Virus record (IMG/VR): IMGVR_UViG_3300045988_016800
Location: 1 to 40,420 of that record
DNA from: a virus
Reading direction: 5' to 3' (one strand)
Length of the DNA stretch: 40,420 bases
Position numbers and translations under genes: made by a program. This document shows, piece after piece, positions 32,607-38,404 of this stretch. The notes under the pieces are model-generated. The model made no database searches. It was not told where the DNA came from and was given only the letters and a program-made list of their open reading frames with translations. Position 1 is the stretch's first letter. Each line of letters starts with the position of its first letter.

Positions 32607-32831
32607 ATGGAAAACATCATCAAGCGGCTCGGGAATCTCCTGAGCGTCAAATCCATCGTTACACTTGGCCTGACCATCATCTTCGCCGTTCTCTCCCTGC
32701 GGGGCGATATCTCCGGCAAGGACTTCCTGACGATCTTCCTGACGGTCATCACCTTCTACTTCGGCATCCAGAGCCAGAAGGTGCAGGACGCCATCGAGGG
32801 CGGCAGCACGAAGGAGGATACGCAGAAATGA
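32607..32831 (+). CDS. Holin (two TM segments)
   Basis: 74 aa. Overlaps the endolysin start. VKSIVTLGLTIIFAVLSL and FLTIFLTVITFYFGI, with a charged C-terminus. Confidence 0.6.
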   Translation: MENIIKRLGNLLSVKSIVTLGLTIIFAVLSLRGDISGKDFLTIFLTVITFYFGIQSQKVQDAIEGGSTKEDTQK

Positions 32832-33526
32832 GTGTCATGAAAGCGTCTGAACTCGTCAAAAAGCATATCGACGTCGCGAAAAACTACAAGACCGTTTACA
32901 TGTGGGGCTGCTTCGGCTCGCCGGTGTCTGAGGGGATCATTTCCGAGAAGGCGAAGAAGTATCCGGACTGGTACACTGCGGCGAAGCAGGCCAGATATCG
33001 CGGCCTCATCGGCAAAGGCTACTTCGGTTTCGACTGCGTGAACCTGACGAAGGGCATTCTCTGGGGCTGGAACGGCAATAAGAACGCCTACCACGGCGGC
33101 GCGCGCCATGCTGGCAACGCCGTCCCGGACGTCTCCGCCGACGGCATGATCGCCAAGTGCAAGGACGTATCGTCGACCGGCTGGGACAAGCTCGTTCCCG
33201 GCGAAGGACTCTGGATGCCTGGGCACTGGGGCCTGTACATCGGCGACGGTCTAGCCGTCGAGTGTACGCCCATCTGGGAGGACGGCGTGCAGATCACGTG
33301 TGTTGGCAACATCGGCCTAAAGGGCGGCTACAACAGCCGCAAGTGGCAGAAACACGGGAAACTCCCGTGGGTCGACTACGACACCGAGACGGTCGACAAG
33401 ACCGTCGAGGATGCCAAGAAGACCATCAAGGCAAAGGCCGGTCTCGCGGACAACACCATCAAGTATCTCGCCGATTATAAGTACGGCGACGATCTGCTGA
33501 AAAAACTGGCTGCAGCCATGAAGTAA
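32828..33526 (+). CDS. Endolysin, NlpC/P60-like cysteine peptidase
   Basis: 232 aa. GFDCVNLTKG (Cys) and GHWGLYIGDGLAVE (His) match the NlpC/P60 catalytic arrangement. Position after the holin. Confidence 0.7.
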   Translation: MSVMKASELVKKHIDVAKNYKTVYMWGCFGSPVSEGIISEKAKKYPDWYTAAKQARYRGLIGKGYFGFDCVNLTKGILWGWNGNKNAYHGGARHAGNAVPDVSADGMIAKCKDVSSTGWDKLVPGEGLWMPGHWGLYIGDGLAVECTPIWEDGVQITCVGNIGLKGGYNSRKWQKHGKLPWVDYDTETVDKTVEDAKKTIKAKAGLADNTIKYLADYKYGDDLLKKLAAAMK

Positions 33527-33539
33527 GGGGGGCGGGTCT

Positions 33540-33788
33540 ATGTCACCGCAGGCGCGCGCCAAGCTGCCGCCGGAGCTGGGCGGCCTGACGCGGAAGGACA
33601 TGGAAGCCGTGATCTATCAGGCCAATCTCGGCCGCGAGAACGCGCAGATCGCGCAGCTCTATTTCGTGGACAAGCTTCCGCAGGTCGATGTTGCGACAGA
33701 ACTGTATCTCGGCAGGGCCACCGTGCAGCGGCGATTGCCGGAGATCATGGAGAGGATGAAAGCCGCGTCCGGCAATCTCCCGAGCTGA
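33540..33788 (+). CDS. Small sigma-70 region-4/LuxR-like HTH protein
   Basis: 82 aa. AQIAQLYFVDKLPQVDVATELYLGRATVQRRLPEIMERM. Confidence 0.55.
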   Translation: MSPQARAKLPPELGGLTRKDMEAVIYQANLGRENAQIAQLYFVDKLPQVDVATELYLGRATVQRRLPEIMERMKAASGNLPS

Positions 33789-33834
33789 ACAAAAGTGATG
33801 CCGGTCTGATGCACAACTGAGGCACAAGGAACCG

Positions 33835-33884
33835 AAAAAAAGCCCATACTGAACACATCAAAGGAGTGTTCGGTATGGGCTTTT
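33835..33884. terminator. Long hairpin with A-tract/T-tract flanks (bidirectional terminator-like) overlapping the SD and start of 33875 CDS
   Basis: 16-bp stem 33841-33856 / 33866-33881 (one G-U pair). Loop atcaaagga. Flanked by aaaaaa and tttt. Confidence 0.6.
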
Positions 33885-34258
33885 CTTATTTTAATCCGAA
33901 CCCGGCCGGGCGTCAGGTCGGAGACTGCACGGTCCGGGCGATCTCCAAAGCGACAGGGCAGAGCTGGGATGAGACGTACATGGGCCTGTGCCTGCAGGGG
34001 CTTATCATGGGCGATATGCCGTCCGCAAACAGCGTATGGGGCGCATACCTCCGGCAGCATGGCTTTGCCCGGAACGTGATCCCGAACACATGCCCGGACT
34101 GCTATACGGTCGCGGAGTTCGCGGCAGACCATCCGCGCGGCGTGTATGTGCTGGCCTTATCCAGCCACGTCGTGTGCGTGGAGGACGGAAGCTATTTTGA
34201 CACGTGGGACAGCGGCAGTGAGATCCCGCTGTTCTATTGGGCAAAGGAGGAAACCTGA
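33875..34258 (+). CDS. Papain-fold-like Cys/His protein of unknown function
   Basis: ATG 33875 lies 8 nt after aaggag. 127 aa. VGDCTVRAISKATG (Cys) and ALSSHVVCVEDGSYFDTWDSG (His). Confidence 0.4.
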   Translation: MGFSYFNPNPAGRQVGDCTVRAISKATGQSWDETYMGLCLQGLIMGDMPSANSVWGAYLRQHGFARNVIPNTCPDCYTVAEFAADHPRGVYVLALSSHVVCVEDGSYFDTWDSGSEIPLFYWAKEET

Positions 34259-34728
34259 TGTTTGGACAACAGCCGTACAACGTATATCAGCAGCCGATCT
34301 ACAATCAGCCGCCCATGCCGCCGATGCAGGAACCGCAGATGCAAATGCGCCCACAATATCAGCCCGCACCGCAGATGCAGTATCCGCAGCAGCCGCAGCA
34401 GAACCAAGCGATCATCTGGGTCCCGAACGAGAAGTCGGCGAATGATTTTATTGTCGCACCCAACAATGCGGTTACCCTCTGGGATATGAACGCGCCGGTT
34501 GTGTACGTCAAAAAGGCCGATGCAAGCGGCAAACCTACTATGACAACGTACGATCTTGTAGAGCGCACACAGGCTGTTATAACGCCCACGGCGCCGCGAA
34601 AAGACCAGAGCGAGGAATACGTGACCCGCAGAGAGTTTGACGAGCTGGTGGCCAAGCTGACGGCTCCCAGCGTCAGGCCGACAAGAAAGGTAAAGGAGGC
34701 AGAACCCAATGGCGAATCCGCTGTTTAA
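34258..34728 (+). CDS. Q/P-rich N-terminus protein, unknown function
   Basis: ATG 34258 after aaggagg. 156 aa. The first 55 aa are mostly Q/P/M/Y, followed by a globular segment IIWVPNEKSANDFIVAPNNAVTLWDM. Confidence 0.6.
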   Translation: MFGQQPYNVYQQPIYNQPPMPPMQEPQMQMRPQYQPAPQMQYPQQPQQNQAIIWVPNEKSANDFIVAPNNAVTLWDMNAPVVYVKKADASGKPTMTTYDLVERTQAVITPTAPRKDQSEEYVTRREFDELVAKLTAPSVRPTRKVKEAEPNGESAV

Positions 34729-34927
34729 TGCCCTCGGCGGCGCGCAAATGCCCGGTACGGTCGGGCAGTTCCAAAACATGGTGCAGCAGTTCCGACAGTT
34801 TCAGCAGACATTTCAGGGCGACCCGAAAGCCGAGGTTGAAAAACTGGTGCAGTCCGGGAAGATCTCGCAGCAGCAGCTGAATCAAATGCAGCAGATGGCT
34901 GTGCAGTTCCGGCAACTGCTCGGATAA
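34709..34927 (+). CDS. Q-rich 72-aa protein, unknown function
   Basis: SD aaaggagg. FQNMVQQFRQFQQTFQGDP...QQQLNQMQQMAVQFRQLLG. Confidence 0.55.
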   Translation: MANPLFNALGGAQMPGTVGQFQNMVQQFRQFQQTFQGDPKAEVEKLVQSGKISQQQLNQMQQMAVQFRQLLG

Positions 34928-34988
34928 CTTAATTTCAATTCGTGGCCACGATTGAGATAAATCAAAAATCTACGAAAGGAGAATTTGT

Positions 34989-35774
34989 ATGAGTCTTACT
35001 GATGGAGGCATCCAGACGACTATGCCTGTTCAGCCCGCGAACAACTACGGCGGCGGCATGGGAATGTGGGGCGACAACTGGATCTGGATCATTGTGCTCT
35101 TCCTCTTCGGCTGGGGCCGAAACGGTTGGGGTGGCAATGGTAACGGTAACGGCGGCGTGATGGATGGCTATGTGCTTACGTCCGATTTCGCGAACCTCGA
35201 ACGCAAGCTGGACAGCGTGAACTCCGGGCTGTGCGACGGCTTCTACGCCATGAACACCGGCATGCTCAATGGCTTTGCTGGCGTAACGCAGGCTGTGACA
35301 AACGGCTTCTCGCAGGCCGAGGTCGCACGCTGCAACGCGCAGATGGCGTTCATGCAGCAGCTCAATGCACTGCAGGCGCAGATCGCAAGCTGCTGCTGCG
35401 AAACCAGAGAGGCGATTCAGGGCGTGAACTACAACCTCGCCACGCAGGCTTGCGATACGCGGAACCTTGTGCAGAACACCACCCGCGATATCATCGACGC
35501 TATGAACTGCGGCTTCCGCAGCATCGACCAGCGTCTGACCGCGCAGGAGCTTGCTGCGAAGGATGCGAAAATCGCTGAACAGAGTCAGCAGCTCTTCGCT
35601 GCACAGCTGGCAGCGTCTCAGGCCGCGCAGAACGATACGTTGAAATCCTACGTGAGCGGGCAGCTGGCGTATTACAACCCGCGCCCGGTCCCCTCGTTTG
35701 CGGTCCCGGCTCCGTACCAGTACGCAGGTTGCAACAGCAGCTACAACTATGGCTGCGGCGGCTGCGCTGCGTAA
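34989..35774 (+). CDS. Gly/Trp-rich, Cys-rich membrane protein, unknown function
   Basis: 261 aa. SD aaaggag. GGGMGMWGDNWIWIIVLFLFGWGRNGWGGNGNGNGG. 10 Cys including a CCC triplet and C-terminal GCNSSYNYGCGGCAA. Confidence 0.65.
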   Translation: MSLTDGGIQTTMPVQPANNYGGGMGMWGDNWIWIIVLFLFGWGRNGWGGNGNGNGGVMDGYVLTSDFANLERKLDSVNSGLCDGFYAMNTGMLNGFAGVTQAVTNGFSQAEVARCNAQMAFMQQLNALQAQIASCCCETREAIQGVNYNLATQACDTRNLVQNTTRDIIDAMNCGFRSIDQRLTAQELAAKDAKIAEQSQQLFAAQLAASQAAQNDTLKSYVSGQLAYYNPRPVPSFAVPAPYQYAGCNSSYNYGCGGCAA

Positions 35775-35847
35775 CAACTCCATACCGTAGAGCTTTTTCG
35801 TGGCCTCACGAAAATGATCGGCCCCATTGCCGATACTCGATAGCAAT

Positions 35848-35880
35848 GCGGCGGGGCGACTACCCCGCCGCTATATTTTT
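35848..35880 (+). terminator. Rho-independent terminator
   Basis: gcggcgggg cgacta ccccgccgc followed by tatattttt. Confidence 0.75.
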
Positions 35881-35897
35881 ACGAAAGGACTGATTTT

Positions 35898-36320
35898 ATG
35901 GCCGAATTCACCAACTCCAATATCGTCAACGTCGCCGCTGGGCAGAATGTCCCGCTGACGGAAACCGCAGTCAGCAGCAAACCGTGTATCGTGCACCGCA
36001 GGGGCAGCGGGCAGGTAACGCTCCACGGACTGACCAATCAGTGCAGGGCGATTTTCAAGGTCTCTTATGGCGGCAATATCGCTATCCCGACCGGCGGCAC
36101 AGTCGAGGCGATCACCGCCGCGCTTGCGATCAACGGCGAAGCTTTGACCAGCGCGACTGCAACCGTTACTCCGGCTGCTGTCGAAAACTACTTTAATGTT
36201 TATGTCTCCGCGCAGGTAAGCGTGCCGAAGGGCTGCTGCGTGACGGTAGGCATGCGCAACACCAGCACGCAGGCGGTCAATTTTGCGAACAGCAACCTGA
36301 CCGTCGAGCGTGTGGCTTGA
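35898..36320 (+). CDS. BclA-C-terminal-domain / C1q-TNF-like beta-sandwich protein (tentative)
   Basis: 140 aa. By-eye collinearity with the BclA C-terminal domain, including the C-terminal LTVERVA (BclA ends IIIEKVA). No collagen repeats. Confidence 0.45.
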   Translation: MAEFTNSNIVNVAAGQNVPLTETAVSSKPCIVHRRGSGQVTLHGLTNQCRAIFKVSYGGNIAIPTGGTVEAITAALAINGEALTSATATVTPAAVENYFNVYVSAQVSVPKGCCVTVGMRNTSTQAVNFANSNLTVERVA

Positions 36321-36334
36321 AAGGAGGACGCAAT

Positions 36335-36706
36335 ATGTATGATCTGAGAAATCTCCGTGAAATGCTCTGCAAGGAGCTTGACGATATCGCGGATAAGCGT
36401 GAAATGTCTGCTGGAGACCTCGACGCGATCCAGAAGCTTACCAGCTCCATCAAGAACACCTATAAAATTGAAATGCTCGAGGATGGCGGCTATTCTCGTG
36501 ATGGAGAGTGGGAAGCGGACATGCGTGGCACGTACGGCCGCGGCAGCTCATATCGCGGTCGCCGACGTGATGCGATGGGCCGCTACAGCCGTGCTGACGC
36601 CCGCGAGCATATGCGTACGAAACTAGAGGATATGATGCGCGACGCGGACGACGATACGACCCGTGAAGCGATCCGCCGCTGCATGGAGCAGATCGAGCGG
36701 GCATAG
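36335..36706 (+). CDS. Charged Arg/Asp-rich protein, unknown function
   Basis: ATG 36335 after aaaggagg. 123 aa. GSSYRGRRRDAMGRYSRADAREHM...REAIRRCMEQIERA. Confidence 0.6.
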   Translation: MYDLRNLREMLCKELDDIADKREMSAGDLDAIQKLTSSIKNTYKIEMLEDGGYSRDGEWEADMRGTYGRGSSYRGRRRDAMGRYSRADAREHMRTKLEDMMRDADDDTTREAIRRCMEQIERA

Positions 36707-36718
36707 GGAGGGACGCGC

Positions 36719-37072
36719 ATGCTGGATGAAGCCGAGATCCGAAAGGAGATTGCACGGCTGGAATATGAAGAATCCAGCTATCCCAACTATGCCAAGCTGG
36801 CAGACCTTTATGTGATACGCAATAAAATGCAAGAGGATGAGCGTGGAGGTCGGAGTATGCGCGTATCAACTTACTCCGGGGACCCAGCGCCAGCGATTCA
36901 GACGGAAGCCCCGCAGACAGTAGGCAGCTACGGCGACAGCGACTTCCTGCGTGCGGTCGCAGGGAAATATCCGTCCAGAGTATGGCCAATCATTGACGAA
37001 CTAATGGATACACTTGCAATTGTCAACGCGAAAGTATATAATTCTGTTATGCAGAAAATACAACGCATGTGA
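36719..37072 (+). CDS. Hypothetical protein
   Basis: 117 aa. SD gggaggga. Last gene before attP. Confidence 0.6.
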   Translation: MLDEAEIRKEIARLEYEESSYPNYAKLADLYVIRNKMQEDERGGRSMRVSTYSGDPAPAIQTEAPQTVGSYGDSDFLRAVAGKYPSRVWPIIDELMDTLAIVNAKVYNSVMQKIQRM

Positions 37073-37085
37073 TATGTTAGTTATT

Positions 37086-37095
37086 TGTTAGCAAC
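37086..37095 (+). repeat. tgttagcaac repeat, copy 1 (candidate integrase arm-type site)
   Basis: Exact 10-mer is repeated at 37310-37319 and 37321-37330 in the same orientation, flanking the tRNA-like core. Confidence 0.5.
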
Positions 37096-37114
37096 CGAAA
37101 AAAACTATAAGTGC

Positions 37115-37193
37115 CTGAAAATGTTTTTTGCTTTTGGATTTGCCGATAAAGACTTAAAGATGCCCGAAAATGTCTGAAAATAGTCCGGAAAAT
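37115..37193 (+). repeat. Four copies of CNGAAAAT in the attP left arm
   Basis: ctgaaaat 37115, ccgaaaat 37164, ctgaaaat 37174, cggaaaat 37186. Confidence 0.5.
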
Positions 37194-37201
37194 TAAGACG
37201 G

Positions 37202-37251
37202 CATGCCTTTTAAGCAGGGTGTCCGGAGTTCGAATCTCCGGCGGGTCACCA
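37202..37251 (+). other. attP core: 3' half of a tRNA-Lys(UUU) (anticodon arm to CCA), not a complete tRNA
   Basis: Anticodon loop cttttaa, variable gtgtc, T-arm cggag-ttcgaat-ctccg, acceptor 3' strand gcgggtc, discriminator a, cca. No matching 5' acceptor strand or D-arm upstream. Confidence 0.7.
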
Positions 37252-37253
37252 AG

Positions 37254-37294
37254 AAATCCTTGAAATCTCAATGGTTTCAAGGATTTTTGTTTTT
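37254..37294 (+). terminator. Rho-independent terminator immediately after the tRNA-like segment
   Basis: aaatccttgaaa / tttcaaggattt 12-bp stem, 9-nt loop, then ttgttttt. Overlaps the integrase stop codon. Confidence 0.7.
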
Positions 37295-38404
37295 GACTGC
37301 TTTTTGATTTGTTAGCAACGTGTTAGCAACCGGCGCGTCAATTGCTTCTACGAGCTGGTCGATATCAAAGTGCTCATAAATGTTTGCAGTCGTAGAATAG
37401 TCGGCGTGTCCAAGCATCTTCTGCAGCAATTCTGGTTTGATATTGTTTGCAACTGCCCAGCTTGCGAACGTATGCCGTGTAGCGTGTGGTGTTTTCTTTG
37501 GGATCCCGAGCCGCTCTAAAAGCGGGTAGTAGTCACGGTTCCGGAAATTCGCGGCTACCTTTTGACCTTCATAGCCGGAAATTAAAAGCTCCCCCTTCGC
37601 GCGTTCTTTGAATTCGGCAAAGTATTTCCGCCCTTCTGAGCGGATAGGGATTATCCGGTTCCGCCCCGCTTTGGTTTTTTCGCCGCCGATTACATAGGTT
37701 TCGTGCACGTTCTCTGTGCGAAGCCCAAACAGTTCGCCGATTCGCATGCCGGTATAAATCATCATGAGAACGAGCCTGGCCTCCTGCGAGCCGTCTTTCT
37801 CGATCTTCTTTATTTCATCGGCGGAAAAGATCTCTTTCTCTTTCTTGACGTTCTCCGGAAGCTTGACGAACGACGCAAAATTGGTAGTTATGAGCTCCTG
37901 CCGAATCCCCCATTGAGACATTTGTGTTACGAGCTGTTTGAATTTTGAAAGGGTCGAGTAAGATTTCGCACTGTATTGATCGATTACCGCCTGATAGTCG
38001 GCGGTTCGAAGCTCCCGGAACTTCCTTTCATGCAGCGGCTCAAAAATATCATAGGCCCTTTCGTAGGATTCGGTTCCTTTTGCTCCAATATCGCGAAAGT
38101 GTTCATCCTTCCAAGCTTCATAGACTTCTTTAAATGTCCAGTTATATATTTCATCAAGACTTCTGCCCTGCAGGCGCGCCAGCGCCTCCAGGGCGGAAGT
38201 CTTTTTATCGTAGTATCCGACGATAACGCCGGACTTGGCAGCGACCCACGGCCGCTTCCGACGGCCCTGCAGCTTATATACGGTTCCTGTCCCGTTCGCG
38301 CGCTTTAGTGATTTCTTCTGTGTGTCTTGCTGCCTCCGGCCGCACCAACAGCAAAAAAGAGACCCATCCGGGATTTCCTTTTTACATTTTACGCATTGCG
38401 TCAT
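37277..38404 (-). CDS. int: Tyrosine recombinase / phage integrase with N-terminal zinc ribbon
   Basis: 375 aa. CVKCKKEIPDGSLFCCWCG. Catalytic-domain motifs MRIGEL, HATRHTFAS, LGHADYSTTANIYEH. Adjacent to the tRNA-like attP. Confidence 0.95.
   Translation of the reverse strand: MTQCVKCKKEIPDGSLFCCWCGRRQQDTQKKSLKRANGTGTVYKLQGRRKRPWVAAKSGVIVGYYDKKTSALEALARLQGRSLDEIYNWTFKEVYEAWKDEHFRDIGAKGTESYERAYDIFEPLHERKFRELRTADYQAVIDQYSAKSYSTLSKFKQLVTQMSQWGIRQELITTNFASFVKLPENVKKEKEIFSADEIKKIEKDGSQEARLVLMMIYTGMRIGELFGLRTENVHETYVIGGEKTKAGRNRIIPIRSEGRKYFAEFKERAKGELLISGYEGQKVAANFRNRDYYPLLERLGIPKKTPHATRHTFASWAVANNIKPELLQKMLGHADYSTTANIYEHFDIDQLVEAIDAPVANTLLTNQKAVKNKNP
37310..37330 (+). repeat. tgttagcaac repeat, copies 2 and 3 (tandem, 1-nt spacer)
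   Basis: tgttagcaac g tgttagcaac. Lies within the 3' end of the integrase gene. Confidence 0.5.

Follow-up and report, generated by a model that had tools for sequence, protein, structure and literature searches.

A fixed-order seven-gene module, found between the endolysin and attP of one phage, that moves between unrelated phages

What is the role of the eight consecutive genes (g1-g8, positions 33540-37072) that lie between the endolysin stop codon (33526) and the phage attachment site attP in the viral contig IMGVR_UViG_3300045988_016800, and do these genes belong together? We addressed this question in the entire 40,420-nucleotide stretch of that IMG/VR record, hereafter the window, and in related phages and prophages. 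The main finding of this study is that seven of the genes, g2-g8, form a module of fixed order that moves as a unit between unrelated phages. The degree of conservation of this module resembles that of morphogenesis modules, although some close relatives lack it. Its fixed order across host families and across head and tail types, combined with its absence from close relatives, points to a discrete and transferable function in the life cycle of gut phages.

Seven genes move between unrelated phages as one unit

The module is defined by its distribution. g2-g8 are found in 148 to 157 of the 161 viral loci that we fetched (g8 in 148), in an order that is identical throughout. The same order is kept in 80 loci from bacterial genome bins, in which the identity of g6 goes down to 37%, and altogether more than 230 loci of phages and prophages show it. 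Among the same 161 viral loci, an endolysin of the window type is present in 49, integrase relatives (belonging to several families) in 73, and g1 in 98, i.e., ~60%. Carriers are taxonomically varied. The titles of the genome bins name Oscillospiraceae, Subdoligranulum, Ruminococcus, Lachnospiraceae, Acutalibacteraceae, Christensenellaceae, Selenomonadaceae, Bacilli, and others, while Solobacterium is also among the carrier assignments and an exact copy of g1 has been deposited once from Faecalibacterium sp. Relatives of g5 are encoded on more than 500 IMG/VR contigs, as are relatives of g6. Clustering at 90% identity gives at least 7,700 clusters for each of the g6 and g2 families, and the gut and rumen Firmicutes phages with the module number in the thousands. 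Exact window proteins recur in hundreds of assemblies, with contig counts of 38 for g5, 122 for g6, and 327-503 for the remaining six neighbors, and 697 blocks of the assembly collection contain the exact g8 sequence. In the close clade, inheritance is linked for g2, g3, and g7, while g6, g8, and segments of g5 reassort freely. These observations support the view of one coherent, long-resident gene set.

The surroundings of this set are far from constant. In most temperate carriers, the upstream neighbor is an endolysin (of the ELLD type in 134 loci and of the CHAP type in others) and downstream there follows a tyrosine integrase in 98 loci and a serine recombinase in 30. In the cultured and apparently virulent Butyrivibrio phage Ceridwen, lysis genes and a predicted terminator precede the module. 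Its place is between the minor and major capsid protein genes in Dulem virus 35, whose major capsid protein has no detectable sequence similarity to that of the window phage, and between the tail tube gene and that of a 3,597-amino acid (aa) tape measure protein in a large phage (our loci L249/L250, ENA scaffold XIEF21-1..._850). It closes the tail operon, without g2, in a phage encoding DNA polymerase III, and in contigs L295/L092 and L303/L114 it is found 16-19 kb downstream of a tail gene. More generally, g2 is absent from some copies in which g3-g7 remain, and in Dulem virus 39, g5 and g6 come after the integrase. In every context (post-endolysin, head module, interval between tail tube and tape measure, post-tail) the module is co-oriented with late genes. 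Many prophage-trimmed IMG/VR contigs stop 0.5-2.3 kb past g5/g6. As a side observation, the open reading frames of the L249/L250 phage fragment under genetic code 11 and its stored products differ from the code-11 translation, which suggests stop-codon reassignment.

When absence of the module was scored with the lysis genes as anchor, it was present in 34 and missing from six of the 40 relatives whose lysis genes are homologous. In two of the latter, the lysin is 84% and 93% identical, respectively, to that of the window, and the module is thus dispensable, or accessory, because such close relatives do without it. Some module-less relatives hold a smaller, unrelated cassette instead. In three of them (L268:16293-16928, L297:16034-16675, and L288:6733-7373), a protein of ~211 aa occupies the same slot, with a Gly-rich hydrophobic N terminus, a coiled coil, a CC pair, and a C-terminal CGGCC cluster; the L288 copy of its gene seems frameshifted. 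The coiled coil shares a LAAKDxxIA motif with g5. As a candidate g5 homolog the protein (L268) was rejected, since hhalign gave a probability of 1.2%, i.e., no detectable homology, and the two are analogous.

The genes of the module admit occasional visitors. A probable homing endonuclease family of the HNH type is inserted, on either strand, at four slots (g1/g2, g4/g5, g5/g6, and g6/g7), with examples at L162:12449-13312 (Ceridwen) and L001:10041-10592 and the annotation of Dulem virus 33 as a further basis. The 265-aa gene found between g6 and g7 in Ceridwen was considered as a module member and dismissed, because its family is inserted elsewhere and on both strands.

All eight window genes are genuine. 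A purine-rich Shine-Dalgarno site lies 6-9 nucleotides ahead of each start, and independent gene calls on four public contigs yield the identical eight products of 82, 127, 156, 72, 261, 140, 123, and 117 aa. The median ratio of nonsynonymous to synonymous substitution rates (dN/dS), computed against 7-25 relatives, is 0.04-0.16 across the eight genes (g1 0.09, g3 0.09, g5 0.16, g6 0.055, g7 0.04, and g8 0.12), with g6 and g7 being the two most constrained. Such values identify all eight as protein-coding genes under purifying selection, far beyond chance open reading frames. Starts overlap or are closely spaced inside g2-g3-g4 and inside g6-g7-g8: the g3 start overlaps the g2 stop (ATGA), and g4 overlaps the end of g3 by 20 nucleotides. 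The GC content of the region (0.55-0.60) is that of the phage backbone, and a promoter scan predicted no sigma-70-type promoter upstream of g2, g5, or g6.

These results bear on an earlier, sequence-only reading of the window, which had described eight same-strand genes equipped with Shine-Dalgarno sites between the endolysin and attP, with backbone-like GC, as a coherent and long-resident accessory set. Open reading frames, gene calls, and dN/dS agree with the gene set, base composition and the fixed co-occurrence of g2-g8 agree with its coherence, and the relatives lacking it despite an endolysin 84-93% identical agree with its accessory status. The expected ordered linkage of all eight families holds for g2-g8 but not for g1, which is separable. 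The idea of an eight-gene cargo cassette must be replaced by that of a g2-g8 module conserved across host families and phage types, next to a variable slot that is the g1-g2 interval. Nor is the position by attP intrinsic to the genes, as the module also occurs in a virulent phage, between head genes, between tail tube and tape measure, and after tail genes.

Folds and families of the module proteins

The protein of the module for which fold prediction is most informative is g6 (35898-36320, plus strand as are all eight genes, 140 aa), which we confidently assign, on the basis of its model, to stand-alone jelly-rolls of the tumor necrosis factor (TNF)/C1q type. The AlphaFold2 model, obtained with a 45-sequence alignment, is an all-β sandwich with a mean predicted local distance difference test (pLDDT) score of 92.4 and a predicted template modeling (TM) score of 0.85. 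Its top Foldseek matches in the PDB are the C-terminal domain (CTD) of F-BclA, ExsF, BxpB, ExsFA, and BclA (E 1e-6 to 2e-5, TM-score 0.65-0.74), followed by other TNF/C1q domains and by knobs of phage fibers and spikes (E to 1e-4). Lower-ranked matches of the latter type include the phi812 central spike, the short tail fiber of cyanophage A-1(L), and the A4 tail complex. In BFVD, the best matches are uncharacterized gut-phage proteins of 130-143 aa (TM-score up to 0.89). Identity in the structural alignments with exosporium proteins is 10-16%, there is no match to Pfam BclA_C (PF18573) or NCBIfam at E up to 1, and a profile search of the PDB gave none better than E 0.4. The earlier description of g6 as BclA-CTD/C1q-like is therefore confirmed for the fold but not for sequence membership. 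The family has 911 clusters at 50% identity. Among the 150 relatives listed, all are 100-196 aa long and span the profile once, and the alignment reveals an invariant GCC motif and many invariant polar residues.

The second informative model is that of g2 (33875-34258, 127 aa), which is probably a minimal papain-like cysteine enzyme, judged from its modeled fold (pLDDT 94, α+β papain-like topology) and its putative Cys18-His98-Asp109 triad. D17, C18, H98, D109, and W111 are invariant in 58 diverse homologs, as well as in a 12-sequence set. The best Foldseek match in the PDB, Josephin-2, is weak (E 0.18, probability 0.6, TM-score 0.48), and the next neighbors (E 0.9-3) are a tegument-like deubiquitinase (DUB), the foot-and-mouth disease virus (FMDV) Lpro, PaTox, and MCF. 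All are papain-like, which is in line with the papain-like Cys/His protein proposed from the sequence. g2 belongs to phrog_3754 and has no match in Pfam, NCBIfam, or PDB sequences. It shares with clan CA proteases (Josephin, tegument-like DUBs, FMDV Lpro) the invariant Cys...His...Asp order and, in its model, the α+β topology, but it is much smaller, matches them only weakly in structure, and has no sequence counterpart in Pfam or the PDB. The spacing of the triad (80 and 11 residues) is presumably close to that in C39 bacteriocin-leader peptidases and papain-type enzymes. Lone g2 homologs were also noticed in Tsamsa-like Bacillus phages (Izhevsk, NC_071045.1, 9583-9978), in Geobacillus phage GBK2 (NC_023612.1, 26471-26860), and in Lak megaphages. 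In the Tsamsa-like phages, the homolog stands alone in an early region, where its neighbors are a gene for a Ser/Thr kinase and an anti-restriction gene of the ocr-like type.

g5 (34989-35774, 261 aa) fits the Cys-rich membrane protein that it had been taken for, with 10 cysteines and one hydrophobic segment. According to hydropathy, an acidic N-terminal tail of ~25 aa is followed by this single Trp/Gly-rich segment; the body is helical and Cys-rich, with an invariant CCC at 135-137, and the Pro-rich tail contains invariant prolines and ends with a Cys cluster. Charge bias suggests that the N-terminal tail is outside and the Cys-rich body inside. The only PHROG matches, phrog_16490 (E 1e-47) and phrog_9288, are both families of unknown function, and no relatives were found in the PDB or in Pfam, the latter scanned with every diverse family member, nor was there any match to holins, spanins, or lysis-category families of PHROG and Pfam. 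g5 resembles T4 holin T and i-spanins in having a short N-terminal tail, one hydrophobic segment, and a long helical domain with conserved cysteines, and in being usually located near lysis genes. However, it has no sequence relation to holins or spanins, and the window phage already has holin-like small membrane proteins and the endolysin upstream. Furthermore, unlike in T4 holin T and i-spanins, the large domain of g5 would be cytoplasmic, and the hosts are mostly monoderm. g5 evolves fastest of the eight genes and is a recombination mosaic, in which distances for the N-terminal, two central, and C-terminal segments are largely uncorrelated among close relatives. Co-evolution of g5 with g6 was considered and rejected: the cluster-based adjusted mutual information is 0.85, but the threshold-free distance correlation in the close clade is only rho 0.04-0.12.

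The four remaining products have low-complexity or helical character. g3 (34258-34728, 156 aa; phrog_21718, E 2e-31) consists of a low-complexity Gln/Pro/Tyr-rich N terminus, a small β-rich domain, and a conserved EYVTRxEFD helix. g4 (34709-34927, 72 aa; phrog_22984, E 6e-22), labeled DUF2680 in source records, is Gln-rich and helical, with a conserved N-terminal NPLFxxLGG and a central GDPKAEV. It is not a tape measure fragment, since it scores 23.3 bits against TMP_2 (cut-off 30.2) and hhalign gives a probability of 0.3% against the 760-aa tape measure protein of the window. g7 (36335-36706, 123 aa; phrog_28802, E 5e-9), which has the lowest dN/dS, has N- and C-terminal helices around a disordered center rich in Arg, Gly, Tyr, and Ser (YSRDG-type). 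g8 (36719-37072, 117 aa) has an N-terminal helix, a disordered linker, and a conserved C-terminal helical domain (GDSDFLxAV...DELMDTL). A paralogous relationship between g7 and g8 was discarded (hhalign probability 1.4%). None of these four proteins has relatives in Pfam or the PDB, and scanning Pfam with every diverse member of the g3 family was likewise fruitless.

Taken together, scans of g1-g8 against Pfam, NCBIfam, PADLOC, and PHROG returned only PHROG families of unknown function and sub-threshold helix-turn-helix (HTH) or tape measure matches. As the sequence-only reading had anticipated, these library scans found no match to virion, lysis, replication, or defense families for any of the eight, the best PADLOC hits (E >= 0.0096) being to unrelated CARF/Csm2 fragments. 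For g2-g8, profile searches of the PDB found nothing significant, and their families have neither a structural annotation in PHROG nor a Pfam model. Hydropathy detected no signal peptide-like hydrophobic stretch in g2-g4 and g6-g8.

g1, an associated box, and two RNA elements

g1 (33540-33788, 82 aa) is a putative dedicated HTH regulator of the module, separable from g2-g8. Its resemblance to sigma factor region 4, proposed earlier, is there but stays below threshold in Pfam, where it scores 17.8 bits against Sigma70_r4 (cut-off 24.1), and also for TIGR02937 (19.5 versus 42.9). In PHROG, it matches transcription regulator/sigma factor families (E 2e-4 to 5e-4), and source records label it "specialized sigma subunit / FocB HTH." In relatives, the interval between g1 and g2 is a variable slot of 0-2 kb that contains many unrelated small gene families and is empty in the window. 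Zinc-ribbon proteins, acidic small proteins, and others are found there, for example at L171:4566-6155, L046:7604-8422, and L109:7323-7718.

Between g1 and g2 in the window lies a 20-nucleotide box, TGATGCACAACTGAGGCACA (33807-33826, plus strand), which occurs once in the window versus 0.01 times expected by chance and is directly upstream of a hairpin in the g2 leader (33835-33887, plus strand). Box and hairpin were found in 74 of the 75 loci with g1 but in only one of the 39 without g1, and the pairing of box and g1 persists with up to 2 kb of variable genes in between. Because of this co-occurrence, g1 may regulate the module at the box, and the sequence pattern suggests a regulator-operator pair acting ahead of g2.

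Both of the strong hairpins proposed from the sequence are borne out by folding energies and by conservation with compensatory or G-U changes. The g2 leader hairpin, with an A-run before it and a T-run after it, has 22-nucleotide arms that are 91% complementary (-32.9 kcal/mol, z = -7.8). Relatives conserve it, and in L002, L074, and L086 the changes in its arms are compensatory. Its loop contains the g2 Shine-Dalgarno site and its 3' arm the g2 AUG, and its possible functions are those of a terminator, a translational operator, or a 5' stabilizer. The second element, in the g5-g6 spacer (35795-35880, plus strand), was delimited by a terminator scan and conservation and consists of three hairpins, A (35795-35814), B (35818-35833), and the GC-rich terminator C (35848-35871) followed by a T-run. 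C and its T-run (-22.5 kcal/mol, z = -3.4) score as a terminator. In 33 distinct sequences the element is kept; double compensatory changes number 13 in A and five in B, and pairing in A is retained despite complete sequence turnover. In C, the 5' arm (GCGGCGGGGC) is nearly invariant and the 3' arm changes to G-U wobble only, which fits an RNA function on the plus strand. The element thereby divides the module into g2-g5 and g6-g8. Neither the leader nor the spacer hairpins match an Rfam family. Two further observations concern the spacer. The element is also present in L001, L002, L166, and ~55 other loci, and hairpin B (TCGGCCCC...GCCGA) is nearly invariant, its GGCCCC being able to pair with the GGGGC of hairpin C in an alternative fold typical of an attenuator.

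Possible roles of the module

What could such a module do? Our preferred, and still tentative, reading is that it encodes a late-expressed, membrane-anchored accessory complex that acts on the envelope of the infected cell and is not part of the virion. A late-expressed complex at the cytoplasmic face is suggested by the co-orientation with late genes, the lack of a detectable promoter, and the location of g1 in the lysis operon. A site at the membrane is suggested because only g5 has a membrane segment while the others have no export signals. A role accessory to lysis or egress or to envelope masking, instead of one in the virion or in core lysis, is suggested because close relatives do without the module. 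In this scenario, the module would be turned on late in infection, with g1 being made together with the lysis genes and acting at the box and hairpin ahead of g2. g5 would insert into the cytoplasmic membrane with its acidic tail outside and its Cys-rich helical body inside. g6 would form a TNF-like trimer that functions as a docking adaptor for a proline-rich peptide, as in ExsF/BxpB, with the conserved Pro-rich C-terminal tail of g5 as the obvious candidate ligand. In ExsF, Pro-rich leader peptides dock in the clefts of the trimer, and the first 19 residues of BclA are cleaved off (PMC12357932). g3, g4, g7, and g8 would be recruited clients or matrix, and g2 would mature one client, the LGG motif near the N terminus of g4 being a candidate cleavage site. 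The membrane-tethered complex would then act at lysis or egress, for example by tuning lysis or by masking the envelope from incoming phages.

A bolder form of this idea, which we regard as quite unlikely, is that the module represents an unrecognized class of late functions, a coat- or exosporium-like scaffold that assembles itself during infection on the membrane of vegetative gut Firmicutes, most of which do not sporulate. The same low likelihood applies jointly to its parts, in which g6 would be the trimeric adaptor, g5 the stalk, g3, g4, g7, and g8 the matrix, and g2 the maturation protease, with g1 and the RNA attenuator exerting control.

Several findings weigh against a late membrane complex. 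Only charge bias argues for the topology of g5, the fold match of g2 is weak (E 0.18), and distance matrices reveal no specific co-variation of g5 and g6, the alleles of which reassort freely. The association of g1 with the box could stem from the shared ancestry of one clade. Genes expressed from the prophage, too, classically lie in terminator-insulated units by attP, and the lone g2 homologs in early regions hint at an anti-defense role independent of the module.

One alternative, akin to the membrane-associated exclusion system that the sequence-only reading had also proposed, is superinfection exclusion or defense expressed from the prophage (lysogenic conversion), in which g5 and its partners would block adsorption or DNA entry and the alleles of g5, g6, and g8 would set specificity. 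We consider this unlikely. In most temperate carriers, the module adjoins attP at the end of the prophage, terminator-like hairpins insulate both sides of g2-g5, close relatives dispense with the module, its membrane-anchored protein is mosaic and the fastest evolving, and its insertion points within head and tail operons are like those of known morons. However, there is no PADLOC or defense family match, no promoter of its own was recognized, its GC is that of the backbone, it is found in virulent Ceridwen and in the virulent-type phage with a DNA polymerase III, and seven tightly conserved genes are many more than in known exclusion systems. Moron cassettes (toxin genes of Staphylococcus aureus phages, HK97 gp15, and lambda bor/lom) offer a further comparison. 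Like these, the module is located at the end of the late region by attP, has flanking terminator-like hairpins, is dispensable, and is also inserted in head and tail operons. A typical moron, however, comprises one or two variable genes, has a promoter of its own, and deviates in GC content, whereas the module has seven genes in fixed order, backbone GC, and no detectable promoter, and it is conserved across host families and present in virulent phages as well. The positions among head and tail genes raise the question of whether the proteins are virion-associated, with a g6 trimer decorating the capsid or fiber tip and g3, g4, g5, and g7 being internal, ejected, or fiber proteins matured by g2. 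TNF-like knobs are common on phage fibers and spikes, the lower-ranked Foldseek matches of g6 are of this type, the module is within head or tail clusters in some phages and directly after tail genes in others, and a small protease beside low-complexity proteins recalls the processing of head-internal proteins. Nevertheless, carriers have major capsid proteins without detectable similarity and very different tails, relatives with an 84-93% identical lysin live without the module, g5 has a membrane-type hydrophobic segment, and none of the seven families has a structural annotation in PHROG. In addition, g6 is among the most conserved proteins, unlike receptor-binding tips, and at 100-196 aa the 150 relatives listed are all too short for a fiber shaft. 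We therefore judge a virion role to be improbable.

The two other alternatives start from single proteins. If g2 were a protease, DUB-like or otherwise, directed at a host immune factor that it removes or cleaves, with the other products as decoys or inhibitors, the module would serve counter-defense. The nearest folds of g2 are indeed of the deubiquitinase type (Josephin-2, tegument-like DUBs), its lone homologs in early Tsamsa-like regions lie beside the ocr-like and Ser/Thr kinase genes, and mosaic shuffling of alleles would fit an arms race. Against this, the structural matches are weak (E >= 0.18), a late-operon position is unusual for such genes, g2 is missing from some copies in which g3-g7 persist, and the membrane anchor and the TNF-like protein would be left without explanation, which makes counter-defense a very unlikely main role. 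Remodeling of the spore coat or exosporium, to which the sequence-only reading had given prominence, would involve the phage adding ExsF/BclA-like and Cys/Gln/Tyr-rich proteins to the surface of the host spore. This is suggested by the nearest folds of g6, the exosporium proteins ExsFA/BxpB and BclA, and by the many hosts that are Clostridia. The compositions within the module (Cys clusters, a Gln-rich N terminus, and Arg/Tyr/Ser repeats) presumably recall those of coat proteins as well. The sole cultured carrier, however, is virulent and infects Butyrivibrio fibrisolvens, which is non-sporulating. To our knowledge, Faecalibacterium (a probable host), Subdoligranulum, Selenomonadaceae, and Solobacterium do not sporulate either. 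Moreover, the TIGR03720 leader, collagen repeats, BclA_C, and coat families are unmatched at E up to 1 in all eight proteins, leaving g6 with no leader or collagen partner, and association with a late lytic operon is unlike expression in the mother cell. We thus see almost no room for this proposal.

By fold only, the closest analog of the module is nonetheless the ExsFA/BxpB-BclA complex of the exosporium in the Bacillus cereus group (PDB 7R1M, 8D02, 9H3D, and 1WCK). As a protein of ~140 aa that stands alone, g6 shares the TNF/C1q jelly-roll of ExsF (TM-score 0.65-0.74), and, as for ExsF, Cys-rich and Pro-rich partners are encoded beside it and a protease-type enzyme nearby. There are also differences. 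Identity is only 10-16% without a Pfam BclA_C or NCBIfam match, the module has no collagen-like protein, exosporium leader, or ExsY/CotY homolog, and its carriers are phages, among them a virulent one, whose hosts mostly do not sporulate, with the trimer and docking of g6 being only proposed. No curated family or described system covers the module, whose seven families are known only as PHROG families of unknown function, and the one paper found on a cultured carrier, the Ceridwen genome paper, assigns no function to them. As it stands, the module would lie outside the known kinds of system.

The significance of the module depends on which reading is right. If the scaffold were real, this would be one of the commonest uncharacterized multi-gene systems in human-gut phages. 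If the module were a plain exclusion system or lysis accessory, the gain would be annotation for several thousand "hypothetical" gut-phage protein clusters. In either case, Ceridwen, as a cultured carrier, makes the module experimentally accessible, and the leader hairpin and the three-hairpin attenuator are additional uncharacterized regulatory RNA.

Finally, the eight genes in the window are flanked by an endolysin gene and a normal attP. Upstream, the endolysin (32828-33526, 232 aa) matches an endolysin PHROG family (E 2e-12). It has no Pfam match at E 0.01, while close homologs in relatives match ELLD (PF25309, E 3e-58), and a member of its cluster is named "Lecithin retinol acyltransferase" by one source, corresponding to an NlpC/P60-type family. 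Downstream, the attP region (37070-37332), recognized from sequence and from repeat family D1, contains a tRNA 3' fragment ending in CCA (~37203-37251); a tRNA search found no complete tRNA. A possible anticodon loop in the fragment, CTTTTAA, would point to tRNA-Lys(UUU). The core is flanked by three TTGTTAGCAAC-type repeats of family D1, the probable arm sites of the integrase. A terminator-like hairpin (37252-37288) follows the tRNA fragment, and after attP comes a tyrosine integrase gene on the minus strand (37277-38404; Pfam PF00589, E 5e-21).

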